DNA from: Planctomicrobium piriforme
GTDB taxonomy: Bacteria > Planctomycetota > Planctomycetia > Pirellulales > UBA1268
Assembly: GCA_945869735.1 (NCBI GenBank)
Contig: CAMBPQ010000003.1
Span: 4,076-68,075 of the forward strand
Direction: 5' to 3'
DNA: 64,000 nt
Part shown: piece after piece, positions 9,683-59,746 of the stretch
Layout of the letters: every line of letters begins with the position of its first letter
Numbering within the stretch: the first letter of the stretch is position 1
Notes under the pieces: model-generated
Seen by the model: only the letters and a program-made list of their open reading frames with translations
Database searches by the model: none
What the model was told of the DNA's origin: nothing
Translations under genes and position numbers: made by a program

Positions 9683-9690
9683 CCCACTCA

Positions 9691-9848: not shown

Positions 9849-9883
9849 TCGGATCACGTGCAAGCCATCTATCGCACCTCGGC

Positions 9884-10582
9884 TTAGGTCAGCCGCGCGG
9901 CCAGTGCGATTGCCGCCGTCTCGACGCGGAGGATATGGGGCCCAAGACCGACGCGGACGACACCGGCCGCTTCGAGCACGGCCAGTTCCTCCGCCGCGAA
10001 GCCTCCCTCCGGCCCAACGAGCGCGATCACGGCCGTGGCGTCAGGCTGCAGCTCTGCCGCCTCGAGCAACGGGGCTCCCGGATCGGCGACGAGCATCCGG
10101 GCCGCGTCTGGCCGCTCACGGAGCAGCTCGGCGATCGACCGCGGCTCACCAATCCCCATGAGCGTGTTGCGGCCCGACTGCTTGCAGGCCTCAAGCACGC
10201 CGCGGCGGAGCCGCTCGATCGCGGCGGGGGTCGCCTCGGCCACGCCCCGCAGCGTGACCAAGGGCACCAGGCGGGCGACACCGAGTTCGGTGAGTTTCTC
10301 GATGAGCCACTTCTGCCGTTCACCCTTGGGAAGTGCCACGGCGAGCGTGAGTGGCAGGGTGGTGGCAACCGCGACCGCAGTCGGCTCGCCCAGTTCGAGC
10401 GTCACTTCGTCACGGCCGATCGTCACCACTCGCGCGGGCCATTCGATGCCGCTGCCGTCGAACACGCGGACCATGTCACCGACCTTGCCGCGCAGCACGC
10501 GGACCAGATGCCGCGCCTCGTCGCCCTCGAGCACAGCCCGGCCCGCACAAGCCGCCGACGACAGGAAAAATCGCTCGCTCAT
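9884..10582 (-). CDS. rsmE: 16S rRNA (uracil1498-N3)-methyltransferase
   Basis: MSERFFL...EARHLVRVLR...VALPKGERQKWLIEKLTELGV...LVGPEGGF are RsmE motifs. The start is at the internal Met 10582. Confidence 0.85.
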   Translation of the reverse strand: MSERFFLSSAACAGRAVLEGDEARHLVRVLRGKVGDMVRVFDGSGIEWPARVVTIGRDEVTLELGEPTAVAVATTLPLTLAVALPKGERQKWLIEKLTELGVARLVPLVTLRGVAEATPAAIERLRRGVLEACKQSGRNTLMGIGEPRSIAELLRERPDAARMLVADPGAPLLEAAELQPDATAVIALVGPEGGFAAEELAVLEAAGVVRVGLGPHILRVETAAIALAARLT

Positions 10583-12785: not shown

Positions 12786-13018
12786 TGGACCTGTCGCTCT
12801 GGGCAATGACATGCCCCGTCATCGCCGTGCTGGCCGACCGTGTGCCCGGCATCGCCTTTGGTGTCCCACTGATCCTCGTGGCCGCGGTCGTGTTCGCGGC
12901 GACGCACCACGAGAGCCCGCAGGCGATCGGCCGCGCGACGATCCAGTGGATTGGCTGGCTTGGCGGCATCCTCGGTGCCGTGCTCGTGGCGGTGTCGCTG
13001 CTGGGCTGGCTGGCCTAG
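12782..13018 (+). CDS. Small integral membrane protein
   Basis: 78 aa with three hydrophobic segments. The ATGA start/stop overlap with the upstream gene suggests coupling. Confidence 0.4.
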   Translation: MMDLSLWAMTCPVIAVLADRVPGIAFGVPLILVAAVVFAATHHESPQAIGRATIQWIGWLGGILGAVLVAVSLLGWLA

Positions 13019-13055
13019 AGCGGATTCGACTTCCGTGGATCGCCGGCTCGAGGCT
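13018..13055 (-). repeat. Family A element, terminal fragment (A5)
   Basis: GAGCGGATTCGACTTCCGTGGATCGCCGGCTCG matches one terminus of family A. It begins inside the TAG stop (13016-13018). Confidence 0.65.
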
Positions 13056-19392: not shown

Positions 19393-19548
19393 GTACGCAT
19401 CCGACTTCCGTGGAACGCCGGCTCGGGGGCGGCAAAAGTCTCGTCGCCGGGGCGAGGATACGCCCGAGGCTCCTCGAGCGTTCGCCGACCCCCTTGCCTC
19501 CCTCCTCCAAGGTGACATCTCGACGCTCTGCCAAAAGCGGATGGGCTC
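19393..19548 (-). mobile_element. Family A MITE-like element, full-length copy (A2)
   Basis: ~155 bp collinear with the reverse complement of 38905-39060. Degenerate termini: ACGCAT...ATGGGCTC. Confidence 0.7.
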
Positions 19549-19650
19549 TCGTTGCTCGAGGCGAGCATGTCACCCCCGGCGAACCAATCCGGCACCGTAT
19601 CGATGCCACCCGTATTCCCCCCGCTGGCGCTGAGGGCTTCCGTGCGGGCG
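19549..19650. repeat. Mosaic of a family C unit (19561-19598) and a degenerate family B unit (19613-19648)
   Basis: GGCGAGCATGTCACCCCCGGCGAACCAATCCGGCACCG is the reverse complement of 54109-54148. ATTCCCCCCGCTGGCGCTGAGGGCTTCCGTGCGGG resembles the B core. Confidence 0.6.
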
Positions 19651-19655
19651 GCTCG

Positions 19656-21194
19656 TCACCCACCCGTCCGCGGCCGATGGATCGGGAACAGAATCACGTC
19701 GCGGATGCTCGGTGCCGCGGTGAGAAACATCACCAGCCGGTCGATGCCAATGCCAAGGCCGCCGGCCGGTGGCATCCCGTGACGCAAGGCGCGGATAAAG
19801 TCGGTGTCCATCTGGGCCATCGATTCGTCGGCCGAGAGTCCTGCAAGCTGCGTGCGGAAGAGTTGCTCCTGCAAGTCTGGGTCGTTGAGCTCGGTGTAGG
19901 CGTTGGCCAGTTCCATGCCCGCGACATAGAGCTCGAACCGCTCGGCGACGTGGGGCTGACCCACCTTCCGCTTCGTCAGCGGACAGATCGATGCCGGATA
20001 ATCGATCACGAATACGGGGCCATCGAGCGTCTGTTCGACCTTCGCCTCGAAGAGGTCGCTTTTGACCACGTCCGGATGCCGTCCAGCCGTCTCGACGCCA
20101 GCAGCGGCGGCCGCCGTGGCGACGCTCGCTGGATCCGTGGGGTCGCAGCCGGTCACATCACGGAGCAGGTCGTCGTATTTCGCCCGCCGGAACGGCGGCG
20201 TGAGGTCGATCATGCGGCCCATCCATTCAAACCGCATGGGCGTGCCCGCAGCCTGTCCCGCCTCTATGAGGATTGCCTCGGTGAGATCCATCATCGTGCC
20301 GTAATCGCCGTAGGCCTCGTAGGCCTCGAGCATCGTGAACTCAGGATTGTGCCGGGGGCTCACGCCCTCGTTACGGTAGACACGGCCGAGTTCGAAGACA
20401 CGTTCCATGCCGCCGACGAGCAGCCGCTTGAGATGGAGCTCGAGCGCGATCCGCAGCACCAGCGGCATATCGAGGGCGTTATGGTGTGTCTTGAACGGCC
20501 GTGCCGCGGCACCGCCGGCGCTCTCCTGAAGCGTCGGCCCCTCCACCTCGAGGTAGCCCCGCGACGTGAGCACGCGGCGAACGGTCTCCACGATTTTGCT
20601 GCGGGCGACGAACCGTTCGCGAACACCTTCGCCATGAATGAGGTCGAGATACCGCATCCGCTGGCGGAGGTCTGTGTCGACCAGCCCGTGGTACTTGTCA
20701 GGGGGCGTCTCCAGCGACTTGGTGAGAAACTCGAGGTGCGAGACGAAGATCGTCATCTCGCCGGACTTCGAGTAGCCGAGCCGACCGTCGACACCGATGA
20801 GGTCGCCGAGGTCGAGGCAGTCCACGATCTTCCAGGCATCCGGGCCAACCTGCTTCTTGCCGAGCATGAGTTGGATGCGGCCAGTGCGATCGTGGAGTTC
20901 GATGAACACGAGGCTGCCGGCGCTCCTGAGCAGCATGATCCGCCCGGCCACACGGACAGCCGGCCCGGTCTCGCTCGTCGTGTCGAGCGATTCGCCCTCC
21001 GCCCGCACGATCGCGACCGATGTCATGCCGTCGAATCGCCTGCCCCAGGGATCGATCCCAAGAGCCACGAGGCGGTCCAACTTGTCGCGGCGCGCTTTCT
21101 CGAGCGCTGCACCGGTGCCGGTGGACGGCGTGGCGACGCCAGGGCTGGGAACGGGGGAGGCCGGCTGGCGGGTCGATTCGGGCGAGTCGTGCAT
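19656..21194 (-). CDS. lysS: Lysine--tRNA ligase (class II)
   Basis: OB-fold N-terminal domain, RYLDLI, VFELGRVYRNEG, and C-terminal GMPPAGGLGIGIDRLVM. Confidence 0.95.
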   Translation of the reverse strand: MHDSPESTRQPASPVPSPGVATPSTGTGAALEKARRDKLDRLVALGIDPWGRRFDGMTSVAIVRAEGESLDTTSETGPAVRVAGRIMLLRSAGSLVFIELHDRTGRIQLMLGKKQVGPDAWKIVDCLDLGDLIGVDGRLGYSKSGEMTIFVSHLEFLTKSLETPPDKYHGLVDTDLRQRMRYLDLIHGEGVRERFVARSKIVETVRRVLTSRGYLEVEGPTLQESAGGAAARPFKTHHNALDMPLVLRIALELHLKRLLVGGMERVFELGRVYRNEGVSPRHNPEFTMLEAYEAYGDYGTMMDLTEAILIEAGQAAGTPMRFEWMGRMIDLTPPFRRAKYDDLLRDVTGCDPTDPASVATAAAAAGVETAGRHPDVVKSDLFEAKVEQTLDGPVFVIDYPASICPLTKRKVGQPHVAERFELYVAGMELANAYTELNDPDLQEQLFRTQLAGLSADESMAQMDTDFIRALRHGMPPAGGLGIGIDRLVMFLTAAPSIRDVILFPIHRPRTGG

Positions 21195-22339: not shown

Positions 22340-22610
22340 CCGTTGAGAAACAACCCGTATTCCCCGCGCTCGCGCTTGGGGCTTCCTGTCGGGAGGTACA
22401 TCTCCCGATCGTGAGGCGCCCTCAAGAAGCCCGAAGCGCAAGCGACGGGAAAGCGGGTGGCGGGCGAGGTGGTGGTGGGGAGCGGGTTGGGGTGGTGGGC
22501 GCATTCCCCGCGCTCGCGCTTGGGGCTTCCTGTCGGGAACGAACGCCCACATAGATCGCGACCGTAGGGCGCACGCCGTTGGGATTCCTGACGGGAGGCG
22601 CCACCCAACT
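22340..22610. repeat. Cluster of family B units in both orientations
   Basis: ATTCCCCGCGCTCGCGCTTGGGGCTTCCTGTCGGGA occurs at 22358-22395 and 22502-22538. An inverted degenerate unit lies at 22423-22460. The GGTTGGGGTGGTGGGCG tail matches 55050-55070 and 59710-59730 in reverse complement. Confidence 0.75.
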
Positions 22611-37029: not shown

Positions 37030-38010
37030 ATGGATCACATGCACGACGACATGCCGCCGGTGACCGTGGTGGTCGTCAACCACAACGCCGGGCCGCTCCT
37101 GGCCGACTGCCTGCGGGCTGCGCTGGCCCAGACGCGACAGGTGGTGCTCGTCGACAACGCCTCCGAGCCACGACCCGTGGACGATGTGCTCGGCTGCTTT
37201 CCGGCCCACTCCGACTTCGACGTGGTGCGGTGCCCCGTGAACGCCGGCTTCGCCGCGGGCTGTAACCGTGGGCTGGCATTGGCCCGCGAGCCGATCCTTT
37301 TGTTTCTCAACCCCGACTGTATCCTGGCTGCCGGGGCAGTCGCGGCGCTCGTGCGTGCGCTCGGAGGCGAGGCCCACATCGGGATGGTCGGCGGACTGCT
37401 CACCGACGAGCAGGGCTTCGAACAGGGTGGCTCGCGGCGGGCCGTCCCCACGCCGTGGCGGTCGTTCGTCCGGGGCTTCGGGCTCACGCGCTTTTCGAGC
37501 CGCTGGCCGAGACTCTTCTCCGATTTCAATCTCCACGGCCAGCCGCTGCCCACGGCCCCGATCGACGTCGAAGCCGTATCGGGGGCATGCACGATGGTGA
37601 CGCGGCAGGCCCTCGACGACGTCGGCCTCTGGGACGAGGGCTTCTTTCTGCACTGCGAGGATCTCGACCTCTGCATGCGGTTTCGCAAGCGCGGCTGGCG
37701 GATCCAGTTCGTGCCGGCGGCCCGGGCGGTGCATCATCGCGGCATGTGCGGCCGATCCCGACCAATCTTCGTCGAGTGGCACAAGCACAAGGGCATGATC
37801 CGCTTCTACCAAAAGCACTTTCGCCACCAGTACCCGCTCGGGCTGATGGGCCTGGTGATCGCCGGTGTGTGGCTCAGGTTTGTGGCGTTCGCCTCCCGCC
37901 TCGCCATGCGGCGGCTGCGGGTCGCAGCGGGGCAGTTCGTTGGTGCAATACCGCGGCCACGTGCCGCCGCGAGGCCGCGGGCCGCCTCCGCCCCAGCGTC
38001 GTCGTCATAA
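37030..38010 (+). CDS. Family 2 glycosyltransferase (rhamnosyltransferase-like)
   Basis: VTVVVVNHNAG...VLVDNAS...NAGFAAGCNRG...FLNPDC...FFLHCEDLDLCMR. Confidence 0.85.
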   Translation: MDHMHDDMPPVTVVVVNHNAGPLLADCLRAALAQTRQVVLVDNASEPRPVDDVLGCFPAHSDFDVVRCPVNAGFAAGCNRGLALAREPILLFLNPDCILAAGAVAALVRALGGEAHIGMVGGLLTDEQGFEQGGSRRAVPTPWRSFVRGFGLTRFSSRWPRLFSDFNLHGQPLPTAPIDVEAVSGACTMVTRQALDDVGLWDEGFFLHCEDLDLCMRFRKRGWRIQFVPAARAVHHRGMCGRSRPIFVEWHKHKGMIRFYQKHFRHQYPLGLMGLVIAGVWLRFVAFASRLAMRRLRVAAGQFVGAIPRPRAAARPRAASAPASSS

Positions 38011-38048
38011 CCGGCTGGTGATACGGCCCACCGCCGGACGGTGCTCCA

Positions 38049-38906
38049 ATGAATCATCATCGCACCGTCGGTGTACTGGGCGCGACGAGCCTGGTCGGTG
38101 AGCCGCTGCTCCCGCTGCTCACCGCGGCAGGGTGGCGGACGATCGCCTGCACGCGGGCCACATGCCTGCCCTGCGGGCCTGCCGACGGCGGCGTGAGCTG
38201 GTGCCATCCAGGCGATGCGCGGCCGGGCGGCGAGACGGTCGTCGCCACGTGGATTGCGCTCTGCCCGCTCTGGGCGCTGCCCAACCAGCTCGCGTGGCTC
38301 GAATCACTCTCGATCCGCAGGCTCGTCGCCCTCTCGTCGACGAGCCTGATCACGAAGCGGGAATCACCCGACCCGGAGGAACGCCGCGTCGCCAGAGTGC
38401 TGGCCGCCACCGAACAGACGCTGCGGGCGTGGAGCGTTGCCCGGGACGTTGAGGTCTGCCTGCTGCAGCCCACGATGATCTACGACGGCGTTCGCGACGG
38501 TAACGTGGCCGCCATCGCTGCGTTCGTCCGCCGCCACGGCTGGTTCCCGGTGGCCGGCCCCGCCCGGGGGCGACGGCAACCGGTGCACGCCGCCTGCGTC
38601 GCGGCCGCGTGCGTCGCCGCGATTGGCCGCGACTCGCTCGCCCCCGCCTACACCCTCTCCGGCGGCGCGGCGCTGCCGTTTCGAGATCTCGTGGCGGCGG
38701 TGTTCGCCGCCTGCGGGCTGCCGCCGCGGATCATCCACGTGCCCCGCCCTGTGTGGACCATGCTGCTACCGCTCGCCCGGGCTTTCGGCATCGCCGAGGG
38801 GGTATCGAGGGGCATGGCCGCGCGCATGAACGACGACCTCGCTTTCGACCATGCCGACGCGGCCCACGACCTCGGCTTCCGGCCCCGGCCGTTCACCCTC
38901 GCTTGA
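38049..38906 (+). CDS. NAD(P)-dependent epimerase/dehydratase (SDR) family protein
   Basis: N-terminal Rossmann GVLGATSLVGEPL. Size and context fit the family. Confidence 0.65.
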   Translation: MNHHRTVGVLGATSLVGEPLLPLLTAAGWRTIACTRATCLPCGPADGGVSWCHPGDARPGGETVVATWIALCPLWALPNQLAWLESLSIRRLVALSSTSLITKRESPDPEERRVARVLAATEQTLRAWSVARDVEVCLLQPTMIYDGVRDGNVAAIAAFVRRHGWFPVAGPARGRRQPVHAACVAAACVAAIGRDSLAPAYTLSGGAALPFRDLVAAVFAACGLPPRIIHVPRPVWTMLLPLARAFGIAEGVSRGMAARMNDDLAFDHADAAHDLGFRPRPFTLA

Positions 38907-39060
38907 GCGCATCTGCCTTTGGCGTAGCGTCGAGATGGCACCTCGGTGAAGGTAGGCGAGGGGGTCGGCGAACGCTCGAGGAGCCTTGGGCGTATCCTCG
39001 CCGCGGCGACGAGACTTTTGCCGCCCCCGAGCCGGCGATCCACGGAAGTCGAATGCGCTC
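38905..39060 (+). mobile_element. Family A MITE-like element, reference full-length copy (A3), 156 bp
   Basis: Perfect 8-bp terminal inverted repeat GAGCGCAT (38905-38912) / ATGCGCTC (39053-39060). Internal dyad CGAGGA(38977-82)/TCCTCG(38995-39000). It has no coding capacity and starts inside the TGA of the SDR gene. Confidence 0.75.
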
Positions 39061-39087
39061 TAGACTCGATACAGAGGCTCGATCCCC

Positions 39088-41001
39088 ATGACATCGCCAT
39101 CCCCGTTCGCAACGGCCGCGACACGCTGGATCGCGATCATCCCCGTGGCCCTCCTGGCTGTCGTGCTCGTCGGCCTCAACGTGGTCATTGACCCGTCCTC
39201 CTACGACGTATCGCAGCTGCCGCGACTCCTCGTGCTCTCTGCATTTCTGCTCGTCCTCACCCCGCTCGTGCTGCTCGTACCGGCGGTCGCCTCCCGGCTC
39301 GACACGTCGGTGCTTCGTGAGCCGGTCGTCGTGGCCTCGGCCGTCTCACTCCTCATATCGGTAGCGTCGCTCACCTTCGCGACCAACATGTCGGCGGGCT
39401 GGACCGACATCTTCCGGACGCTCGCCGCGGTCAGCGTGCTCGGCGGCGGCTGCCTCCTCCTGCCGCTCGATCGGGGCTGGAGGCAACGCGTCGTGGAGGC
39501 GCTCGTGCTCGCCGCCGTCGTGGCCGTCGCCCTTGGAGCCTCCGAAACGCTGACACGCTGCGGCCCTGGTTTCCCTAGCCGCCGGGCGATGGAGGTCGTG
39601 ACCGGACGGATGGCGAACGTCAATCTCTATGCCGGCCTCCTCGCGATGCTGCTGCCGTGGTGCCTGGGCGGGACGGCACTGCTCGCCGGTGGCTGGCGCT
39701 GGCTTTCGGCAGCGACGGCGGTCGGCACACTCGCGCTCATCGTGCTGGTCCAGTCCCGGGCAGCGTGGCTGGCGGTGCTTGTCTCCGCAGCCGTAACAGG
39801 GGCCGCCGCGGTTGCCTGCCACGACCGCCTGGCACTCTCGCGCAGCCTGCGGCGTTCGCTCGCGGCAGCTTTTCTCGGTGGTGCCGCGACGGTCCTCGGG
39901 ATAGCGTCGCTGACCGGCACCGACACACCGCTCGGTCACCTCCTCGAGACAACGCTCGTGACGCGGCCCCATCAAGCCGGCGGTCCGACCGACGGCGGCC
40001 GCACGATGATCTGGGGCGTCACGGCTCGGATGATCGCCGACCATCCGCTCACGGGCGTCGGCGCCGGCAACTTCACCATCCGGCTCCACGATTATTACGA
40101 CGGCAACCTCGACTTCTCGAACCTCTCAAGTGACAACTGGATTCAGCCGCATAACGACTTCCTGTGGGTATTCGCCGAGAAGGGACTGCCCGGGCTCGTG
40201 GCCTTTACGGCGATCTTCGTCGCGGCCCTCCTCGCCGTCCGCGACGTGCTCCGTTGTGGCTCAGTACGCGAGGCCAGGCTCGCCCTCGTCTGCCTGATGG
40301 CACTCGTGGCGTACCTCGTCTTCTCCTGCGTCGATTTTCCACTCGATCGTGTCACTCATCAGGTGCATCTCGCAGTCCTCTTGGCTGTGATCACCCTCGA
40401 GAAACATGCCGTGCGGCCCGTTTCGACGCGGCCCGTGCCGCTCCCCGGCTGGCTCGTCGTGCCGCCGACGGTCGCGGCCCTCGCGCTCGGCGTGACCTAT
40501 GCGACTGCGGCGCTCGACCAGGAACGGCAGGTCATGATCGCGCGGCGGGCAGGCCACGCCGGCGACTGGAAGACGATGCGGACCGCGGCCCGCGCGGCGG
40601 CGACCCCTTGGAAGTCCCTCGATCCGCTGGCCACGCCCATCGCCTTCCTCGAAGGCATGGCGGACATGCGACTCGGCCACCGTGACCAGGCGACCGCCTG
40701 CCTGGAACGAGCCTTCACGGCCAACCCCAACCGCATGTACGTCGTCAACAACCTCGCCGCCCTGTACGCAGAGGCCGGCCGGTTCGACGATGCGATCCCC
40801 CTGTTCGCTGCTGCCGCCGACCGCTATCCCGACCGGCTCGAACCGCGACACAACCTCGCTGGCTGCCTCGTCGACGCGGGCCGGTTCGCTGAGGCCGTGG
40901 CGGTGATCGAAACGGTACCCGAGGAGTATCGGACCGATCCGCTCAAGGAGATGCTGGCGTTTGCCCGTGAAAAGCTCGCGGTGTCGCCGGACGGTCGTTA
41001 G
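39088..41001 (+). CDS. O-antigen ligase/polymerase-like (Wzy_C) membrane protein with C-terminal TPR repeats
   Basis: Multiple TM helices, and the Wzy_C signature NWIQPHNDFLWVFAEKGLPGLV. C-terminal TPR-like NLAALYAEAGRFDDAIPLF...NLAGCLVDAGRFAEAV. Confidence 0.8.
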   Translation: MTSPSPFATAATRWIAIIPVALLAVVLVGLNVVIDPSSYDVSQLPRLLVLSAFLLVLTPLVLLVPAVASRLDTSVLREPVVVASAVSLLISVASLTFATNMSAGWTDIFRTLAAVSVLGGGCLLLPLDRGWRQRVVEALVLAAVVAVALGASETLTRCGPGFPSRRAMEVVTGRMANVNLYAGLLAMLLPWCLGGTALLAGGWRWLSAATAVGTLALIVLVQSRAAWLAVLVSAAVTGAAAVACHDRLALSRSLRRSLAAAFLGGAATVLGIASLTGTDTPLGHLLETTLVTRPHQAGGPTDGGRTMIWGVTARMIADHPLTGVGAGNFTIRLHDYYDGNLDFSNLSSDNWIQPHNDFLWVFAEKGLPGLVAFTAIFVAALLAVRDVLRCGSVREARLALVCLMALVAYLVFSCVDFPLDRVTHQVHLAVLLAVITLEKHAVRPVSTRPVPLPGWLVVPPTVAALALGVTYATAALDQERQVMIARRAGHAGDWKTMRTAARAAATPWKSLDPLATPIAFLEGMADMRLGHRDQATACLERAFTANPNRMYVVNNLAALYAEAGRFDDAIPLFAAAADRYPDRLEPRHNLAGCLVDAGRFAEAVAVIETVPEEYRTDPLKEMLAFAREKLAVSPDGR

Positions 41002-41165
41002 AGCGCATCTGCCATCAGTGGAGCGGGGCGGGGTGCTCCCCGCATTCCCCACGATTGGGGCTTCCTGACGGGAGGCAAAGAGGGTCGGCGAACGCTCGAG
41101 GAGCCTCGGGCGTATCCTCGCACCGGCGACGAGACTTTTGCCGCCCCCGAGCCAGCGATCCACCT
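41001..41165 (+). repeat. Family A element (A4) with an internal family B insertion; far terminus missing
   Basis: Starts GAGCGCATCTGCC inside the TAG stop (40999-41001). The B-like unit CCCCGCATTCCCCACGATTGGGGCTTCCTGACGGGAGG lies at ~41040-41080, after which the A body resumes (GGTCGGCGAACGCTCGAGGAGCC...GCCGCCCCCGAGCC). Confidence 0.7.
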
Positions 41166-41180
41166 CTCACCGGTTGCGTT

Positions 41181-41666
41181 TTAAAGCTGCGTCGGGTTGG
41201 GCGCGTCGCCATAGACGGCCTTCGGGTCGAAGGCCTTCTCATGCTCGAGAAACTCAAGCGCCGTTCCTTGGGTTCGTTCGGCTCCGACGGGCACTTTGCG
41301 GTAGAAGCACGAGCGATAGCCGACGTGGCAACTAGCGCCGCCGGCAATCTCCACACGGAGCCAGACGCAGTCTTGGTCGTCATCGATCCTCATCTCGACA
41401 ACTTTCTGCACGAGGCCGCTCGTGGCCCCCTTGTGCCAGAGTTGCTGGCGGCTGCGGCTCCAGTAGTGGGCCTCACCCGTCTCGATCGTCCTACCGAGCG
41501 CCTCGCGGTTCATCACCGCCACCATCAGCACCTCGCCCGTGTGAAAATCGGTAGTCACGCAGGGAATCAGGCCGCTGGAGTCGAACTTGGGGGCGAGGTC
41601 GTTGCCCTCCTCAACCTGCTCGACGCTGACACGATTGCCAAAGACACTTTCCGGATCACTCGACAC
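41181..41666 (-). CDS. hisI: Phosphoribosyl-AMP cyclohydrolase
   Basis: [41 protein letters not shown]....DDDQD..WL.V. Confidence 0.9.
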
Positions 41667-41788
41667 GGCTCTGCTCCTCGCTGACGGACTCGATCGGCTG
41701 GTACTATACCACCCTGATGTGCTCTGCTTCGGCCGTAGGTGGCCCGGGCAGAGCCGCCGTATTCTCTTTCGTTCCGGAGCACGTCGCC

Positions 41789-44902: not shown

Positions 44903-45062
44903 GCCTGTTGTCTCCACGGGAATCGACCGAACCTACTCGTCTCGCCGCGCACGACAAGTCGCTCGACGCTGAAAGTCTCGTTCCGAGTGTACGGGTGCCG
45001 CACCGCTCCTTCAACATGACCGCGGGGCGATCCCCGGCCCGAGGGTGCATACTAGGTGGGTC

Positions 45063-46166
45063 ATGCCTCCAGACCAGCGCACCGATTCCAGCCCTCGAAT
45101 CTGCCACGACCCCCTCTCCGGCCGTCCCGTCTTCGTGGCACCCCAGCGTGGCGGGAAGCCGAACGACCGGGAACTCGTCGTGTCGGGCGACGGTGTCACC
45201 GACCATCCGTCGGTGTGGTGCCCCTTTTGTGTGGGCAACGAGTCCCGCACACCACCAGATATCGTCCGGGCGCCCGCCGACATGGCTGCCCCGTGGCAGT
45301 CGCGGATCGTCACTAACGGTTATCCCATTACGACCGATCGACCACCGCTGGATCTATCGGAGTCGGGCTGGGCGGGTAGCGACCGCTACGCCCACGGCAC
45401 CCACGACGTGGTCATCGAGTCACCGCGTCACGACCGCTCGATCCTCGCTGTCGCGCCCGAGGCGTGGCGCGACGTCTGGACGATCTGCCAGCGCCGGTTC
45501 GTGATGCTCGCCGAGCAGCCGGGCCTCGCGTGGGCCACGGTCTTCAAAAACTCTGGCCCCAGGGCCGGGGCATCGCTCGAACATGTCCACAGCCAACTGA
45601 TCGGCGTCGACATCGTCCCCCCGGCACTGCACACCGAACTTGCGACGCTCGAGGTCCAGCGCGATCCCTTCGGCCGCCTGCTCGCGGAAGCGCGTGCAGC
45701 AGGCCGGATCATTGCGACGGCGGACGACCTTGTCGCCCTCGTGCCCCCTGCCCCGCGGCAACCCTTCGAGACATGGATCGTCGTGGCGGAGCCGGAGCGG
45801 CACTTTCATGCTGCGTCGGCCGCCCGCGTAATGGCGATCGCCGACCTGACCCGCGACATTGTCGGCAGGCTTGAACGACTGGTGCCGGGCTGCGACTACA
45901 ACTGGTGGCTGCACCAGGCCCCTTTTGATCGCTCGATCAACACCCCCGGCCGCGCGGCGGCATGGCATTGGCACCTCGAGATCCTGCCGCGTCTGACTGA
46001 GTTGGCCGGATTCGAACTCGGAACGGGCTGCCACATCACGACCATGACGGCCGAGGACGCGGCCCATCGCCTGCGCGACGCCGCGGTCGAGACCGGATTC
46101 GACGTATGTGTCTCGCCAGCCCGGGGGTGGCAAAAGTCTCGTCGCCGGGGTGAGGATGCGGTCTAG
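45063..46166 (+). CDS. Galactose-1-phosphate uridylyltransferase-like (GalT/HIT superfamily) nucleotidyltransferase
   Basis: Zn site WCPFCVGNE, and the active site GASLEHVHSQLIG (HxHxQ). The last ~23 codons and the stop are contributed by a family A repeat fragment. Confidence 0.75.
   Translation: MPPDQRTDSSPRICHDPLSGRPVFVAPQRGGKPNDRELVVSGDGVTDHPSVWCPFCVGNESRTPPDIVRAPADMAAPWQSRIVTNGYPITTDRPPLDLSESGWAGSDRYAHGTHDVVIESPRHDRSILAVAPEAWRDVWTICQRRFVMLAEQPGLAWATVFKNSGPRAGASLEHVHSQLIGVDIVPPALHTELATLEVQRDPFGRLLAEARAAGRIIATADDLVALVPPAPRQPFETWIVVAEPERHFHAASAARVMAIADLTRDIVGRLERLVPGCDYNWWLHQAPFDRSINTPGRAAAWHWHLEILPRLTELAGFELGTGCHITTMTAEDAAHRLRDAAVETGFDVCVSPARGWQKSRRRGEDAV
46095..46160 (-). repeat. Family A fragment (A6) embedded in the 3' end of the GalT-like CDS
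   Basis: GGATTCGAC...CCCGGGGGTGGCAAAAGTCTCGTCGCCGGGGTGAGGAT aligns with the A1/A2 left halves. Confidence 0.65.
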
Positions 46167-46861
46167 CAGCCGGCCAGGGCGGCCCAGTCGACACCCGGCG
46201 GCATGTGTGTCGCCCCGTGTTCGAGGATCACCACGGGGATCGTTGGCAGTCGAAGAGCGATATCGGCCGCGCTATCGCGGGCGATCGCAACGTCGCTCGC
46301 CGGGTCGTGAGCGGCTCCCGTCGCCGGGGTCGTGTGCGACAGCACTACGGCAGCCACCTCGAGACCCTCCGCCCGTGCGGCCCGACACATGGCGAGTGAT
46401 CGACCGACCGCACCGAGCCGCGCGGCGTCGACGATCACGAGCGGCATGCAGAAGTCGCGGGCGAGGTCGGCGACGAGCGTCGCATCGCCCACAGGTGAAA
46501 ACAATCCGCCGGCTCCCTCGACGACGACAACGTCGGCTGCGGACAGCCAGGCGTCGAGCCCGGTGCGCAGCAGTCGCTCATCGACGTGGCTGCCAGCGTG
46601 GCGGGCGCTGCGATGGGGTGCGATCGGCGTTGCGAAAACCTGCGGACAGACGTCGCCGGGCGCCAGCGGCTTTCCCGCAGCGTCCCATAACAGCCAGGCA
46701 TCACCCGCCGTGTCGTCAGCGGTCGCGCACCCGCTGGCGACGGGCTTGTAGACCCCCACCCGTCGGCCCGTAACCGCCAGCGAGCGGACGATGGCCGTGG
46801 CGACATGCGTCTTGCCCACGTCGGTGTCTGTGCCAACGACGAACAACCCGGCTCGCTTCAT
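46163..46861 (-). CDS. bioD: Dethiobiotin synthase
   Basis: LFVVGTDTDVGKTHV (P-loop), YKPVASG, VVVEGAGG. Confidence 0.85.
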   Translation of the reverse strand: MKRAGLFVVGTDTDVGKTHVATAIVRSLAVTGRRVGVYKPVASGCATADDTAGDAWLLWDAAGKPLAPGDVCPQVFATPIAPHRSARHAGSHVDERLLRTGLDAWLSAADVVVVEGAGGLFSPVGDATLVADLARDFCMPLVIVDAARLGAVGRSLAMCRAARAEGLEVAAVVLSHTTPATGAAHDPASDVAIARDSAADIALRLPTIPVVILEHGATHMPPGVDWAALAGC

Positions 46862-49513: not shown

Positions 49514-51175
<1,662 letters not shown>

Positions 51176-51231
51176 TTACGGGTGGAAGACTGTGGACTGT
51201 CGTGGTTTAAAAATTGATCGGAGACGCGTGC

Positions 51232-51555
51232 TTAGCTGAGAATGGCGAGGATGTCGTCCTCTCGCATCAGCAGCAGTTCATCGTCGCCCACCTTGAAGGG
51301 CTCGCCGGCGTAGCTCGTGAAGACCACGCGGTCGCCCGGCTTGACCTGCAGGACATGACGGAGGCCCTTGTTGTCGAGCTTGCCCTCGCCGACGCTCACG
51401 ACGACGCCACGAGCGGGCTTGTCCTTGGCGGAGTCGGGCAACAGGATGCCGCCGGCGGTCTTTTGCTCGCCTTCCTCGCGCTCGACGACAACGCGGTCGC
51501 CGAGGGGGATGAGCGTCGACTTCTTGCGGACGGATTTGGTGGCCGTGGCTGACAT
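51232..51555 (-). CDS. groES: Co-chaperonin GroES (Cpn10), with a short N-terminal extension
   Basis: IPLGDRVVVEREEGEQKTAGGILLPDSAKDKP..G.VV.VG.G. SD GAGAGGA lies upstream of ATG 51555. Confidence 0.95.
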   Translation of the reverse strand: MSATATKSVRKKSTLIPLGDRVVVEREEGEQKTAGGILLPDSAKDKPARGVVVSVGEGKLDNKGLRHVLQVKPGDRVVFTSYAGEPFKVGDDELLLMREDDILAILS

Positions 51556-51989
51556 AGTTCCTCTCGTGGATCTCTGGGGTGAACGTCCCCGTCGGGCAAC
51601 GCAACGCCTGACGGGGGCGATGACGGGCCGCGTCGCCAGGCCAGACGGCCTGCCCGCAGCGACCGTCATCAGACCGGTTGTTGAGAGCAAAGCAAGTGGC
51701 GCGCCGGAACGGTGGGGATTCCCAACGGAAACTCCTCTTTGGCGACTTTCCCGATGTTTTTGCGACATCATCGGACTGGCTGGGCAGGGAATGGGTCGAC
51801 TCGCACGCTGCCAGTTTGGCAGCGACATGCCGCTCAAGCTCACGGATTCACCGAATCCGCAGCCCTGCGACCCCGGCCGACACAGCCGACCTGCAAACGG
51901 TTGTCCGTCGCCCATGCCGCATGGCAAATGCGCTATCCAGTCGGTAGTCTGCAGGCGTCTGTTGGTTTTCGCCCACCAAAGCCGTCAGG

Positions 51990-52352
51990 TTGTCCATGTC
52001 ATCGCACAAGCGGATCGACGTTTCAAAGGTCGGCGACGTCACGGTTGTGAGGTTCGTTGACAAGAAGATTCTTGATGAGGCCGGCATCCAGGAACTCGGC
52101 GCCGAACTGTTCTTCCTGATCGAACATGACAACCGCCGCAGCATCCTGCTCAACTTCGAGAATGTCGACTTTCTGTCGAGTGCGGCGCTCGGCAAACTGA
52201 TCACGCTCGACCGCAAGGTCAAGGCGGCCCAGGGCCGGCTCAAGATGAGTAACATTCGACCGGAGATCCTCGAGGTCTTCCAGATCACGAAGCTCAACAA
52301 GGTCTTCGACATTCGTGCCGAAGAAGCCGAGGCGGTCTCGGCTTTTCAGTAG
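51990..52352 (+). CDS. STAS domain protein (anti-sigma-factor antagonist, RsbV/SpoIIAA-like)
   Basis: VTVVRF......LDEAGIQELG.EL........ILLNFENVDFLSSAALGKLI.L..... Confidence 0.8.
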   Translation: MSMSSHKRIDVSKVGDVTVVRFVDKKILDEAGIQELGAELFFLIEHDNRRSILLNFENVDFLSSAALGKLITLDRKVKAAQGRLKMSNIRPEILEVFQITKLNKVFDIRAEEAEAVSAFQ

Positions 52353-52387
52353 CTGTCCCGAAGCGGGACGGGAGTGACTTTGACGCC

Positions 52388-52825
52388 ATGATCGATCAAC
52401 CTGCTGCGGATGCCTGGCGGCTCTCAATCGATCTGCCGAGCGAGCGCGGCGCGAGCCGAAGAGTCACAGACGATCTGCTCGAACACTTGGGCATCCATGG
52501 CTGGCCCCCCTCCGACATCTTCGCCATCCATCTGGCGGCAGAGGAGGCGATCGTCAATGCCATCGTCCATGGCAACCGCCTGGACCCCGCCAAAAAGGTT
52601 CACGTGGAATGTGTGGTCTCGCCGGAGGTCACGCGGATCGCTATCACAGACGAGGGCGCCGGGTTCGATCCGGCCAGCGTTCCTGACTGCACGTCCGACG
52701 AGAGGCTCGAAGCTCCGGGTGGACGCGGCGTGATGCTCATGCGGTCCTTTATGAGTAGGATCGAATATAACGCCAAGGGCAATGGCGTCGTCCTGGAAAA
52801 GATCCGAAATCCAGCGGACAACTGA
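52388..52825 (+). CDS. Anti-sigma regulatory factor, HATPase_c Ser/Thr kinase (RsbW/SpoIIAB-like)
   Basis: N-box EEAIVNAIVHGN, G1 ITDEGAGFD, G2-like GGRGVMLMRS. Confidence 0.8.
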   Translation: MIDQPAADAWRLSIDLPSERGASRRVTDDLLEHLGIHGWPPSDIFAIHLAAEEAIVNAIVHGNRLDPAKKVHVECVVSPEVTRIAITDEGAGFDPASVPDCTSDERLEAPGGRGVMLMRSFMSRIEYNAKGNGVVLEKIRNPADN

Positions 52826-52892
52826 CCTGCTCAGGCGGGTGCGTCGCCGTATCGATTTCGGGGAAAAAATACGCTACCGTACGGAGCATCGA

Positions 52893-52964
52893 TCCCCGAT
52901 AGCTCAACGGTAGAGCGGCCGGCTGTTAACCGGTAGGTTGTAGGTTCAAATCCTACTCGGGGAG
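52893..52964 (+). tRNA. tRNA-Asn (anticodon GUU)
   Basis: Full cloverleaf folded by hand. Acceptor TCCCCGA/TCGGGGA, D stem GCTC/GAGC, anticodon stem GCCGG/CCGGT with loop CTGTTAA, T arm GTAGG-TTCAAAT-CCTAC, discriminator G. No encoded CCA. Confidence 0.95.
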
Positions 52965-52966
52965 CT
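52949..52966 (+). repeat. 18-bp direct repeat, copy 1 (3' end of tRNA-Asn); putative attL
   Basis: AATCCTACTCGGGGAGCT is identical to 53894-53911. Confidence 0.85.
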
Positions 52967-53215
52967 TTGGCTCTTTTTGAAAGTGGCCGCACGAGATCGC
53001 ACGGAGCCGCAGAGTGACGCAAGTCGTTCTGCGGCTTGGTCTTTTGATGGGGAAGCCATTTTGTTGATGCGGAGGCCCATCAGGCCCGCGATCCGCAAGC
53101 CACGAGAGCATTTCGTGCAGTGTGTCTCTCGCTCACTCGTGTTTCTACGGAACCGCGTAACACTTATGGCTGGCTGCGCGGACCCAAAGTCTGCTGCCTC
53201 ACATGAACCGCACGG

Positions 53216-53485
53216 TCACCGTTGACCGCAACGCCCCTCCAAGATTCCCGTGAACGACAGGTCTTCGTCGAGCGTCGGCCAGTGCAGCCCAAATGGAGAG
53301 ATTTCGATACGGCCCACATCTTCCTCGGCAGCGGATTCCAGCCGCGGGTTGCCCTTGGTGGGAAAACTCACCTCATGGCCGCTGGCGAACCTGATAAAGA
53401 TCATTCCTCGCTCATGCCATGCCTTCAGGGCACGATCAGCCAAGGTGCTCGGCCCATTTTTGTTTGATGAGTTCGAGGTGGTCAT
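53216..53485 (-). CDS. DUF2442 family protein
   Basis: ...MIFIRFASGHEVSFP......L..A.......IEISPFGLHWPTLDEDLS is the typical DUF2442 pattern. The annotated start overlaps the upstream gene by 50 nt; an alternative Met lies at 53404. Confidence 0.65.
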   Translation of the reverse strand: MTTSNSSNKNGPSTLADRALKAWHERGMIFIRFASGHEVSFPTKGNPRLESAAEEDVGRIEISPFGLHWPTLDEDLSFTGILEGRCGQR

Positions 53486-53669
53486 CGATGAGGTCCTCCG
53501 CTCGCGAAAGTTCTCTTACATTGAACCCGACTGATTCACGCAGTTCTACTTCCGGTTCGACAACGAACACCGCTTCGCCCCCGCCCCTGCGAACATGGAC
53601 GTGGATGGGGGCATGGTCATTGCTGTAGAAGAAAAACGAATAGCCATCTTGTTCGAAAATCTTCGGCAC
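53436..53669 (-). CDS. DUF4160 family protein
   Basis: MPKIFEQDGYSFFFYSNDHAPIHVHV (GTG start) is the hallmark DUF4160 N-terminus. Confidence 0.75.
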   Translation of the reverse strand: MPKIFEQDGYSFFFYSNDHAPIHVHVRRGGGEAVFVVEPEVELRESVGFNVRELSRAEDLIDDHLELIKQKWAEHLG

Positions 53670-53893
53670 TATTCAAGTGTACATAACCGCGGTTTCGGAG
53701 GCCCTCCCCGCCGTGGCCTGATTGCTCAGCGGGTGCCGGGCAGGCGGGTTCGCTGCCGCGGCCCTTTGCCGAACACCGCTCGGGGGCCCGGTGCGACCTC
53801 CTGCGGGATCATGCGGATTGGGGAGTGAGTCGTTTTTTGAGTCGCTTTCTTACCGACACCCAGTTTTTCGCGAAGAAAGCGGCGGTTGTTACG

Positions 53894-53911
53894 AATCCTA
53901 CTCGGGGAGCT
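53894..53911 (+). repeat. 18-bp direct repeat, copy 2; putative attR
   Basis: AATCCTACTCGGGGAGCT duplicates the tRNA-Asn 3' end 945 bp downstream. Confidence 0.85.
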
Positions 53912-54099
53912 ACGCCACTCATGTCTAGAGTGGCAACCATGAGGCAGGAGGTGGCAAAACCGTCTGCCTCTCGGTGTTTCTGGAGGTGACCTGCACGAGC
54001 TCTTCCCAGTCGGTCGGCGGGCCACGGGCGGGAGAGACTTTCCGGTCCTTCGGGGAACTTTGTGGGCGTGGGGTTGCCCATGCAGTGAGCCCGTGGGGT

Positions 54100-54370
54100 C
54101 GCGGGCGAAACGGTGCCGGATTGGTTCACCGGCGGTGACATGCTCGCCGCCGGGGGATTTTGCTCCAGGATGCTCGGGTGGCCGACTGGGGAATTGCTCG
54201 TGAGTCGCAAAGATTCCCCGGCGTCTGCGCGTGCCCCCGACCGGCTCCTCACGATCAAGAATCGGTTCGATCATCCGTGCAACTTGCTTCCCGTCAGGAA
54301 GCCCCAAGCGCGAGCGCGGGGTATCCGGGTCGCATCGAGACGGTGCCGGAGTGGTTCGCCCGCGGACGCT
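54100..54370. repeat. Mosaic of family C (54109-54148, partial 54335-54365) and family B (54285-54330) units
   Basis: AACGGTGCCGGATTGGTTCACCGGCGGTGACATGCTCGCC, and GTCAGGAAGCCCCAAGCGCGAGCGCGGGGTAT. Confidence 0.65.
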
Positions 54371-54602
54371 CAAAGGCCTGGTGGCTCCCGCTCCACAAAA
54401 CCCGTCCAGACCACAGATGTGATCGCCCTGCGCGGCGGCCGTTTACCGCTCTGCCCATGAAAACCCCGGATGGACCCCGAAGGGAAGGTCGGGCGGTGCC
54501 GTTACAGGTATCCGCCCGTCCTTCGGTGTCGGCCCCTGGAGCGGCTCGAGAGAGGTCCTTCACCGGAGCCCTATCCTCCGTCCAGTTCAAGTTCACCTTT
54601 TC

Positions 54603-54957
54603 GGGATAGCCGAGGCTAATCCCGCGGGGCCCCGCCTCCCGGATCACCTCGAGGGCTGGCTCGAGGGTGGCGCCCTTTACGAGCGGCCCGTCGCGGCATA
54701 TGTCGAGGAGGATCTCCGTGGGTATCTCACGTGCGGGCTGCTCTGTTTCGGATTCGCCCGCGCAGCCTGCACGGGCTGCGGTCAAGCATTCGTCGTCGCC
54801 TTCTCGTGCAAGCGGTGGGGCGTCTGTCCATCCTTCAACGGCCGGCACATGGCGCAGACGGCGGCGCACAAAAGTTGATCACGTCATCCCGCCGGTGCCC
54901 GTGCGGCAATGGGTGAGTTCCATCCCCAAGCGTTTGCGGGGATGCTCGCCTGAAAAA
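54603..54957 (+). pseudogene. IS91-family transposase N-terminal fragment (zinc-binding domain), frameshifted and truncated
   Basis: One frame reads ...ALYERPVAAYVEEDLRGYLTCGLLCFGFARAACTGCGQAFVVAFSCKRWGVCPSFNGRHMAQTAAHKS*. After a +1 shift at ~54873 it continues VDHVIPPVPVRQWVSSIPKRLR. A conserved Cys is replaced (CPSF), and the catalytic domain is absent. Confidence 0.7.
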
Positions 54958-55014
54958 AGAGTGGGTTTTCGGTAGACGCGAGTGTCCGCATCACGCTCAT
55001 CGACCGCGATGATT

Positions 55015-55136
55015 CCCGACAGGAAGCCTCAAGCGCGAGCGCGGGGAATCCGTCCGCCACCCCAACCCGCTCCGTACCACGCCCACGGCTTGCCACCCGC
55101 ATACCCATCGCTCGCGCGCCAGGCTTCTTGGGGGAT
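55015..55136. repeat. Family B unit followed by family D unit (a diverged inverted B); an imperfect ~120-bp palindrome
   Basis: CCCGACAGGAAGCCTCAAGCGCGAGCGCGGGGAATCC...CCACCCCAACCCGCTCC, then GCCACCCGCATACCCATCGCTCGCGCGCCAGGCTTCTTGG. Confidence 0.75.
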
Positions 55137-55315
55137 GGCCACACAGCCTGCGGTGCCGCGCAGGGCCCGGGACTGAACCCCATCGACCGCTCGTCACCGG
55201 TCGCGCGCTTGTGAAAGTGCCGTTGACCGTTCTATCCTACCGGCTTCGGGCTCGGCGTCGTGCTCTACTTCGTAGTTCGACCGCTGTTTCCCCACCGCTG
55301 AGGAGGGCTTCCGTC

Positions 55316-58201: not shown

Positions 58202-58300
58202 GAGCGCATCTCGGATAGCTGAAGCGGCGACTTGGCAAACTGGAACAGGGAGGCAAAGGGGCCGGCGAACGCTCGTGGAGCGTCGGGCCGCCGCGGCATC
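58202..58300 (+). repeat. Family A fragment (A7)
   Basis: Starts GAGCGCATCT, then ...GAGGCAAAGGGGCCGGCGAACGCTCGTGGAGC, similar to A4 41080-41110. Truncated. Confidence 0.55.
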
Positions 58301-58798
58301 GTGACTGCCAGCGCCAGGATCACGAGGCCGGGCTTTGCCGACTCGGGGATCGAAAGCGACGGCCACCATGCCGAGCACCACCCGCACCGGCCACGGCGAG
58401 GATCCGCCCGCGGCTTTTGAGGTTCACGAGAATCGAGAGCAGGAGGAGAAGCACCCACATCGCACATGGGTTGAAGCATCCCCAGACGCTCGGGATCGAC
58501 GCGAACCAACCACGGCAGATCGATGGATTCGGCCGTGCGATGCCTGCGGACAAGTTCCGCGAGCACCTCGCGATCGGCCGCCGCTGCTGAGCCGGCACAT
58601 GCGGCCACAAGGATCGCGGCAGCGATGAATCGGCGGTGATCTGGCATGCGTTGTCACGTCACGTGCGGGAGCGGCTCGCGAAACGTCCGAAACATCGTAC
58701 AACCGTGGTCCAGCGTCACGTGCGAGCGTCCGCGACACGTGTCGCCGTTGAACGGCACGGAGCGGACAGGCTACCTTTCAGTCACCGGAGATCGTTGC

Positions 58799-59593
58799 AT
58801 GCTGCCCACTCGACTCATTGGCGGAATCGTCGCGGCGGCTTTCGTGGTAGCGGCCGGGATGCCGGCAACGACCCGAGCCGCCAATCCACTCCGCGTGGGC
58901 ATGGAACTCTCCTATCCGCCCTTCGAGATGACTGATCCGCAGGGCCGGCCGGCCGGCATCAGCGTGAAAATCGCCGAGGCACTCGGCCGGCACCTGGACC
59001 GTCAGGTCGTGATCGAAAATATCGCCTTCGACGGCCTGATCCCCGCGCTGAAGTCGCGAACCGTCGACTGCGTCATCTCGTCGATGACTGCGACGCCGGA
59101 GCGGGCAAAGTCGATCGCCTTCTCGGACCCGTATCTCAAGACCGGCCTCGCCCTGCTGATCGCAGCGAACTCACCCCTGCAGTTGGCGGCCGACCTCGAC
59201 GGAGAGGGCCTGGTCGTCGCGGTGAAGCAGGGTACGACCGGACAGCAGTGGGCGGCCGCGTCGCTCACGAAGGCGAAACTACTCGTGCTCGATAGCGAGG
59301 CTGCAGCCGTGCTGGAGGTACTCCAGGGCCGCGCCGATGCGTTCATCTACGACTCGATGTCGGTCTACAAGAACCACCAGCGGCATGCGGGAAAGACGCG
59401 GGCCGTGCTCAAATCCTTCAAGGAGGAGCCATGGGCCGTGGGTCTCCGGCAGGGGGATGAAGAACTGCGGCGGCAGGTCAACGAGTTCCTGCGGGAGTTC
59501 CGCGAGCAGGGGGGCTTCGAGAGGCTCGGCGACGAATTCCTTGCCGAGCAGAAGGCGTATTTCAAAGAGCACGACATCCCCTTTTACTTCTAG
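58799..59593 (+). CDS. Polar amino acid ABC transporter substrate-binding protein (family 3 SBP)
   Basis: Signal peptide, LRVGMELSYPPFEM.D..G...G..V.....L......V......FDGLIPAL.S...D..ISSMT.T.ER.....FS.PY. Confidence 0.85.
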   Translation: MLPTRLIGGIVAAAFVVAAGMPATTRAANPLRVGMELSYPPFEMTDPQGRPAGISVKIAEALGRHLDRQVVIENIAFDGLIPALKSRTVDCVISSMTATPERAKSIAFSDPYLKTGLALLIAANSPLQLAADLDGEGLVVAVKQGTTGQQWAAASLTKAKLLVLDSEAAAVLEVLQGRADAFIYDSMSVYKNHQRHAGKTRAVLKSFKEEPWAVGLRQGDEELRRQVNEFLREFREQGGFERLGDEFLAEQKAYFKEHDIPFYF

Positions 59594-59615
59594 CGCGACC
59601 GCCACTCTCAACGGG

Positions 59616-59746
59616 GTCGCCACCCGCATACCCATCGCTCGCGCTCCGGGCTTCTTGGACACGCCGCCTCCCGACAGGAAGCCCCAAGCGCGAGCGCGGG
59701 GAATACGCCCCCCACCCCAACCCGCTCCACACCGCGCCCACGCGGG
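59616..59746. repeat. Family D unit followed by family B unit (the same modules as 55015-55136 in swapped order)
   Basis: GTCGCCACCCGCATACCCATCGCTCGCGCTCCGGGCTTCTTGG, then CCCGACAGGAAGCCCCAAGCGCGAGCGCGGGGAATACGCCCCCCACCCCAACCCGCTCC. Confidence 0.75.

Follow-up and report, generated by a model that had tools for sequence, protein, structure and literature searches.

What is the short non-coding repeat that recurs at gene ends in a planctomycete genome, and is it a transposable element or a structure kept by its host? The question arose from a stretch of 64,000 nt (the window) of Planctomicrobium piriforme (order Pirellulales; assembly GCA_945869735.1, contig CAMBPQ010000003.1, positions 4,076 to 68,075 of the forward strand; 67% G+C), in which an earlier note, made from the letters alone, had described an element of about 156 nt at 38905-39060 with seven copies, here termed family A, and had read it as being like a MITE (miniature inverted-repeat transposable element). 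We found this interpretation to be essentially right. Family A is, with a probability of about 80%, a real and recently mobile non-coding MITE of 156±1 bp that duplicates a TA on insertion. The features that set it apart are its abundance, its targeting of stop codons in a CTAG-poor genome and a core that is conserved far beyond its ends.

All seven reported copies were recovered in the window at 75-95% identity, both by BLASTN of the reference copy with its flanks and by a repeat search, and a multiple alignment resolved them into two full-length and five partial or rearranged copies. The reference copy of 156 nt starts with GAGCGCAT and ends with ATGCGCTC. Its 8-nt tip by itself was no commoner in the window than chance (5 matches against 5.05 expected), unlike the whole 156-nt unit, which recurred beyond chance. 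Identity to the reference copy in BLASTN was 90% over 153 nt for 19396-19548 (minus strand), 93% for 9691-9796 (minus), 95% for 13015-13053 (minus), 91% for 41066-41163 (plus; with its left arm this copy spans 41001-41181), 81% for 46086-46160 (minus) and 75% for 58247-58306 (plus), the last having the left terminus GAGCGCAT at 58202. The second full-length copy does lie on the opposite strand with degenerate ends, and the partial or rearranged copies were as listed in the earlier note, except that the copy at 41001 proved to be full length (181 nt, TA on both sides) rather than truncated; the foreign insert reported within it is real and is a unit of a second repeat family, B. The open reading frames (ORFs) crossing family A were spurious read-throughs only, and the peptide that had been taken as a sign of repeat DNA, GGGKSLVA.ARIRPRLLERSPTP, was common to five copies.

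The termini were consistent far beyond the window. A search with nhmmer, seeded with the two full-length window copies, collected 115 copies from the window and the fetched loci, and 37 full-length copies from many genomes aligned end to end with the consensus C-TA-GAGCGCATC ... GCGCTC-TA-G. Length was 155-157 nt in 20 of the 22 distinct two-ended copies, and the layout was a left arm at about positions 1-47, a core at 48-131 and a right arm at 132-156. The perfect 8-bp inverted repeat first noticed is real in the reference copy but merely the tip of a terminal inverted repeat (TIR) that is imperfect over about 28 nt: the two arms matched at a mean of 17.8 of 28 positions (22 copies), and over positions 9-28 at a mean of 11.2 of 20 compared to 5.5 for shuffled arms.

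Evidence of insertion came from an empty site. Loci encoding relatives of the 637-aa protein at 39088-41001 were fetched, and the closest, L096, from the metagenome-assembled genome (MAG) LejiaB_66_22, had 92-94% DNA identity to the window over 38000-41700. This locus aligned to 38000-38899 and 39061-41700 of the window, with a gap between the two blocks of 3 nt compared to 161 in the window. The empty site reads CCCTGGA-TA-GACTCGG, with a single TA, and the occupied site reads CCCTCGC-TT-(GAGCGC...156 nt...GCGCTC)-TA-GACTCGA. The net difference of 158 nt equals 156 plus 2, indicating insertion at a TA with duplication of that TA, the left copy of which later became TT. The 41001 copy has a TA at each end and its target was T-TA-A, which shows that the outer bases belong to the flank and that CTAG is a preference and not part of the element. 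About 82% of full-length copies had TA at each end, and the bases outside it were mostly C and G, also T, A or C. MAG DEBay_Sum019D carried at least nine copies that were identical over 156 nt, had different flanks and were all bounded by TA; these are the product of a recent burst, and the element has recently been active. For IS630 elements the target motif is CTAG, of which 2 bp are duplicated (PMC2577343, Table 1, citing Tenzen and Ohtsubo 1991). Termini, fixed length, TA flanks, the single-TA empty site and the C-TA-G preference together agree with the suggestion that the element is MITE-like, and IS630/Tc1-like should TA be duplicated. Copies occurred beyond the window, more than 30 full-length copies shared their termini and no known RNA family was matched. 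Family A has every structural feature of a MITE save an identified autonomous partner, and it is an otherwise ordinary element of its kind, the exception being a central hairpin far better conserved than the ends.

Why should such an element gather at gene 3' ends? The placement described earlier agrees with the gene context of the window copies, with those at 9691, 13018, 41001 and 46095 between convergent genes and those at 19393 and 38905 directly downstream of one gene within a tandem pair. CTAG occurred 18 times in the window compared to 197 expected from base composition (11-fold depleted) and TA 769 times compared to 1770, and 10 of the 18 CTAG sites were at stop codons or outside called genes. 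Because TA, and above all CTAG, is scarce in a genome of 67% G+C, surviving copies would pile up at 3' ends, and CTAG depletion largely explains the location. The element starts with G and ends with C, so that when a stop codon's TA is the target, TAG would be restored for a gene lying on either flank. Where ends could be recognised, the junction triplet was TAG or TAA in 31 of 42 left and 43 of 68 right junctions, of which 7 and 16, respectively, terminate a long ORF rich in G+C at third codon positions; about 30% of intact ends are the stop codon of the neighbouring gene. The TA dinucleotides flanking the 41001 copy (40999-41000 and 41182-41183) lie in the stops of two convergent genes, the TAG of 39088-41001 (a Wzy_C/TPR protein) and the TAA of hisI (41181-41666), and the stop TGA of gene 38049-38906 overlaps the first two bases of the reference copy. 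Different genomes were hit repeatedly at the same CTAG sites. An element occupies the stop of hisI not only in the window but also in L096, L099 and L073, and at the stop of 58646-59593 family A is present in L049 and L013, in place of the family B of the window; CTAG/stop-codon sites are common hot spots for several small elements. Counted directly from abutting stop codons, 16 copies were in sense orientation only and 16 in antisense only, with 7 and 8, respectively, among full-length copies, and insertion either way is expected of a DNA transposon with symmetric ends. A crude count from gene-caller output in tandem contexts had given 25 sense to 11 antisense; given the direct count, no orientation bias is claimed.

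The family is abundant. A 25-nt word from the core (GGCGACGAGACTTTTGCCRCCCCCG) matched at least 95 stretches of a species-representative genome collection, the matches listed coming from about 20 species-level Pirellulales/Planctomycetota MAGs and many lying at contig ends, with no match in IMG/VR viral contigs. The window itself matched freshwater and sediment metagenomes. Summed contig depth on the core was about 1000 times that on the flanks in four metagenomes (e.g., 23,838 compared to 22.8), and the element was carried by 400-700 contigs per metagenome run. Seven copies per 64 kb would scale to several hundred per genome, with which the depth ratio, which may include copies of related genomes in the same communities, is compatible, and over many freshwater Pirellulales genomes the copies number at least in the hundreds. 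With a density of a few copies in every 10 kb, the family may form 1-2% of these genomes. With so many copies at the ends of contigs, the element is probably one reason why MAG assemblies of abundant freshwater Pirellulales are fragmented. Masking it would also improve gene calls, since it sits on stops, supplies last codons and seeds spurious ORFs. No description of family A, or of any planctomycete MITE, appears to exist in the searchable literature, and a 2024 review of prokaryotic MITEs does not mention Planctomycetes.

What the middle of the element does is the second part of the question. An alignment of 57 distinct cores (A2) was consistent with a rod-like hairpin of three helices. P1 pairs GGC-GA-GGGGG-U-CGGCGAA with UUUGCCG-CCCCC-GA-GCC, P2 runs from U25-A63 to C34-G54 with two tandem G.A/A.G blocks inside, and P3 is GGGCG/CGCCC closed by the loop UAUCCU; the core thus holds three tandem G.A/A.G motifs (CGAG opposite CGAG). 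Sixteen core pairs varied on both sides, the observed values being reached by none of 500 shuffles, and sliding the pairing partners halved the pairing. In P1, GGGGG/CCCCC was replaced by GUGAA/UUCAC or GGGAA/UUCCC and C6-G80 by U-A. Tandem G.A was replaced by G-C plus C-G (A28C with A61C) or by U-A, G29-C59 was swapped to C-G, and P3 was found in three versions. The dyad CGAGGA-12-TCCTCG, which the earlier note had singled out, exists as sequence, but its variants are compensated elsewhere, and the register U25-A63 ... C34-G54 with tandem G.A fits better. The minimum-free-energy register of P2 was also rejected: it has more Watson-Crick pairs in the consensus, but variants break it rather than compensate. 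A left-arm hairpin, suggested by single-sequence folding, gave no consensus in RNAalifold on 22 full-length copies. The minimum free energy of the consensus core RNA was -51.0 kcal/mol on the plus strand (z = -3.25) and -44.9 on the minus strand (z = -2.13). On the latter, pyrimidine mismatches or A.C would stand in place of the G.A tandems and of a conserved G.U; sporadic mismatches favoured neither strand (10 G.U compared to 20 A.C, one conserved wobble excluded). The terminator role once proposed did not hold up, as no hairpin with a following U-run was found on either strand of 38600-39400 and the sole U-run (UUUU) lies inside the hairpin. Rfam 15 matched only tRNA-Asn across the whole window at the gathering threshold, and only two chance-level sequences (15 bits, E 7-10) in 38800-39200 at E up to 10; an element scan for a sigma-70-like promoter consensus gave no match.

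Mean pairwise identity among 33 distinct full-length copies was 95.6% in the core, 57% in the left arm and 71% in the right arm, with 81% and 77% in the two 10-nt termini. Since a core 25-mer served to collect the loci, this contrast is partly one of ascertainment; it is also seen between the window copies 38905 and 19393, at about 74% in the arms and about 96% in the core. Diverging TIRs around a near-invariant, covariation-supported hairpin raise the question of why a MITE would need its middle. Two pairs of orthologous copies were available. Between the 9691 copy and that of L067 the core was about 91% identical and the flanks 93-95%, and between the 41001 copy and that of L096 the values were 83% and 92-95%. 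The first pair also differs at subfamily-diagnostic positions and may represent two separate insertions at one site or gene conversion. At face value, resident copies would not seem to be visibly protected. Orthologous copies differ about as much as their flanks or more, and the invariance of the consensus across genera would then reflect selection on the lineage that transposes and not on the individual copies in place, a view that fits the data without being proven by them. We consider it unlikely, yet worth stating, that a MITE lineage with TIRs free to diverge carries as cargo a functional nucleic-acid module not described before, namely the 80-nt core, which would be either an RNA or single-stranded DNA structure required for transposition or a 3'-end hairpin on which the host relies. 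Were it a portable hairpin of the latter type, it would lay a mobile regulatory layer on hundreds of Pirellulales genes.

How would such an element move? We propose that a DDE transposase duplicating TA moves family A in trans, and judging from the TA/CTAG target site and the style of the TIR this mobiliser would most likely be of the IS630/Tc1-mariner type. The hairpin would be needed either for spread or for rendering new insertions harmless. One route to harmlessness could be that read-through transcripts acquire a stable 3' hairpin, which is described for ERIC and Correia elements; this is the least supported step.

Several observations weigh against this account. The precise empty site was seen at one locus only, where the left TA has mutated to TT; two further candidates (L083/L094 and L006/L024) were too diverged for exact boundaries, and no clean skip of a single copy was seen in metagenome contigs. 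In a plain MITE one would expect the TIRs to be better conserved than the core, and here the reverse holds. About 20 copies with a good core lacked recognisable arms or TA flanks, and they count against the account because simple cut-and-paste followed by neutral decay does not explain them; that they hide divergent TIRs holds for a few (L023, L026, L066), most matches being at chance level. About 800 kb of fetched loci contained no long TIR pairs at an IS-like spacing (600-2500 bp), the one inverted pair, in L021, enclosing an ordinary protein. Scans of genome contigs for TIRs without the core (DEBay right arm, DEBay left arm and window-type left arm) gave 0 matches, as did the DEBay left arm without core in metagenome contigs, and a fifth such scan gave 10 coincidences in coding sequence and one unrelated small element. 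The TIR scans covered exact subfamily TIRs only, and the failed search for a transposase is a weak negative since insertion sequence (IS) elements are often lost from MAG assemblies. For the window, Pfam checks of 20 ORFs, not exhaustive, agreed with the reported absence of a transposase.

Candidates for an autonomous form were considered and rejected. Two inverted copies 2 kb apart in L021 (3832-3978 and 5946-6111) look like a composite transposon, but they bracket a minus-strand gene for an ordinary 524-aa protein and no transposase; the same locus has a divergent core-like hairpin at 5685-5774. In principle, inverted family-A pairs of this sort could move the enclosed gene as a composite. 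Nor does the core appear to be the 3' end of an IS, as the ORFs upstream of 77 core copies were unrelated singletons. A 101-nt element in L124 (1176-1280), a metagenome contig of 54% G+C, has the tips GAGCGCATTCGA and GATCCCGTTCGA, is flanked on each side by a TA within CTAG and is without the core of family A. This is apparently another MITE whose ends are built alike, suggesting that such ends are the property of a wider lineage of transposons, with the core as something added.

The rival explanations differ in what they make of the hairpin. It is possible, if on balance doubtful, that the core is a structured RNA selected by the host, a hairpin of the 3' untranslated region (3'-UTR) that protects mRNA ends or stops read-through, with the arms a mere vehicle and resident copies kept for the sake of neighbouring genes. 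This would supplement the MITE reading and not replace it. The covariation-supported pairing, the greater stability on the plus strand, and the three tandem G.A motifs and conserved G.U that work on that strand only all point in this direction, as do the copies (about 20) that keep the core at 95% or more with no recognisable arms, and ERIC and Correia elements are known to alter mRNA fate via RNase E and RNase III (PMC10969869). The crude excess of sense copies in tandem contexts would fit too, yet the abutting-stop count is unbiased, overall and among full-length copies, and sporadic mismatches favour neither strand. One metatranscriptome contained a few core-bearing contigs, thin evidence that is unstranded and open to DNA carry-over. 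Neither a U-run terminator nor an Rfam family was matched, and the two orthologous copies, with the caveat already given for 9691/L067, diverge about as much as their flanks or more.

Rather less probable is that the MITE is moved by a transposase outside the IS630 family, either an IS427-type enzyme of the IS5 family or an enzyme that recognises the core hairpin instead of the TIRs. The core is indeed conserved as though it were the recognised part, no IS630-type gene with matching ends was found, and the L124 element, with similar tips and no core, indicates an end type wider than family A. IS427-type IS5 enzymes have YTAR targets and make short duplications; a GAG start is common in IS5-family ends and is also that of the family-A tip. 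However, a 2-bp TA duplication with CTAG preference is a documented IS630 signature (PMC2577343, Table 1), imperfect TIRs of about 28 bp suit Tc1/IS630 ends, and no transposase, whatever its family, was found that would speak for this rival. Highly improbable is a REP/BIME-like mosaic repeat spread by a RAYT or by recombination of intergenic modules instead of cut-and-paste. In its favour, modules are pieced together as mosaics in the intergenic regions, a family-B unit lies inside the 41001 copy and many genomes have family B joined to the core at a fixed junction, repeat C occupies both sites in L097, and many copies are without one arm. Set against this are the fixed length of 156 nt, the TIRs, the 2-bp target duplication and the precise empty site, whereas REP/REPIN sequences are palindromes of 20-40 nt or pairs of them (PMC3733652) and are not known to make a target duplication. 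The family-B unit adjoining the 9691 copy is moreover a separate insertion that is absent in L067, and no RAYT was found among the 20 window ORFs scanned with Pfam. The TA-duplicating MITE remains our reading of family A.

The features of the window are collected in Table 1. The 41001 copy is common to the window and L096, with L098 retaining a right-end remnant only, and the 9691 copy is found in L067 as well. The P3 variant of the 58202 copy is also present in L052 and L057. All neighbouring genes that were checked were ordinary housekeeping genes, none of them a transposase. Gene 45045-46166, which takes its last codons from the decayed copy, is GalT/DUF4921-like, and the CTAG at 46163 serves both its stop TAG and the stop of a convergent bioD-like gene (46163-46861).

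Table 1. Family-A copies, parts of the reference copy and family-B units in the 64,000-nt window.
Feature	Position	Strand	Remarks
Left target TA copy	38903-38904		now TT (A to T change)
Reference full-length copy, 156 nt	38905-39060	+	recent insertion; missing from the closest related genome
Left TIR, about 28 nt, imperfect	38905-38932	+	tip is GAGCGCAT; 19/28 match the reverse-complemented right arm
Conserved core, rod-like hairpin	38955-39033	+	compensatory changes, fold energy
Right TIR	39033-39060	+	inner end overlaps the foot of the core
Right target TA copy	39061-39062		inside CTAG at 39060-39063
Second full-length copy	19393-19548	-	degenerate termini GAGCCCAT ... ATGCGTAC; TA gone on both sides
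Short form, core and right arm without left arm	9685-9801	-	family-B unit adjoins at 9802-9885
Right-end remnant only	13015-13054	-	CCTCGAGCCGGCGATCCACGGAAGTCGAATCCGCTC-TA-G on the element strand
Full-length copy, 181 nt	41001-41181	+	a 45-nt family-B-like segment in place of about 25 nt of left arm
Decayed 3' half (core 3' strand and right arm)	46086-46163	-	encodes last ~25 codons of gene 45045-46166
Truncated copy, variant subfamily	58202-58306	+	helix P3 GGGCCGCCGCGGC replaces GGGCGTATCCTCGCCC; 3' part lost
Family-B units	768-846, 9802-9885, 19573-19661, 22340-22546, 41027-41071, 54289-54365, 55006-55131, 59614-59743		

Of the two families, B looks the more REP-like; it has the core ...ACCCGCATTCCCCGCGCTYGCGCTTGGGGCTTCCTGAC and, internally, a GC-rich hairpin, and in many genomes it is often joined at a fixed junction to the core of family A. 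Metagenome depth on it was about 130 times that on the flanks. As its unit of about 85 nt beside the 9691 copy is absent from the orthologous L067 site, family B is itself mobile. In several genomes (window 19560-19602 and 54106-54148; L057, L081 and L082) a longer module, GGCGAGCATGTCACCCCCGGCGAACCAATCCGGCACC..., stands before family-B units; it adjoins the 19393 copy and may be the full-length form of family B. The third repeat, C (GAGGCTCATCGACCGKGAAAACCCTCGGCGTTTYCMCCGGTCGATCCAGTGGACAAAGGTCA), fills in L097 (2350-2470 and 4490-4560) both of the intergenic sites that hold family-A copies in the window. At 50000-55200 of the window G+C falls to 58-62% around tRNA-Asn (52893-52965), and the ORFs 53726-54373 and 54294-54869 near it had no Pfam match; this low-G+C stretch adjoining a tRNA gene may be an integrated or foreign segment.

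Where does family A stand among known elements? It was not a member of REP/REPIN, of any Rfam family or of the intrinsic terminators. With the REP/REPIN-RAYT system it shares abundant hairpin repeats at gene 3' ends and between convergent genes, arranged in mosaics of modules, but REPs are 20-40 nt long and have no architecture of TIR plus duplication (PMC3733652). With IS630/Tc1-mariner elements and bacterial MITEs such as RUP of pneumococcus it shares the 2-bp TA duplication, the CTAG preference and short imperfect TIRs (PMC2577343, Table 1), but no IS630-family transposase with family-A ends was found, and its membership would follow from the target site. A location in 3'-UTRs has been reported for QMITE2 of Coxiella (PMC10969869).

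The elements closest in behaviour are Correia and ERIC. Correia elements (CREE/nemis, Neisseria) are likewise MITEs with full-length and shorter forms in more than 100 copies, and a cognate transposase is known for neither them nor family A. They have TIRs of about 26 bp, a TA duplication and a size of about 155 bp. Correia elements differ in having promoters and an IHF site and in often lying upstream of genes, whereas family A has no sigma-70-like promoter match, lies at 3' ends, and in its short forms loses an arm rather than an internal segment. In Correia transcripts the hairpin is cut by RNase III (PMC10969869). ERIC elements and family A are both non-coding imperfect palindromes of about 130-150 bp that lie mainly between genes, often at their 3' ends. 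A TA duplication is made by ERIC, too. ERIC occurs in tens to hundreds of copies, with 711 in Photorhabdus, and can alter mRNA decay when co-transcribed (PMC10969869). The two have no sequence relationship and belong to different phyla, and the effect on mRNA was shown for ERIC in Yersinia. Compared to ERIC, it is the centre of family A that is near-invariant and the ends that diverge, at a density of about 7 copies per 64 kb.

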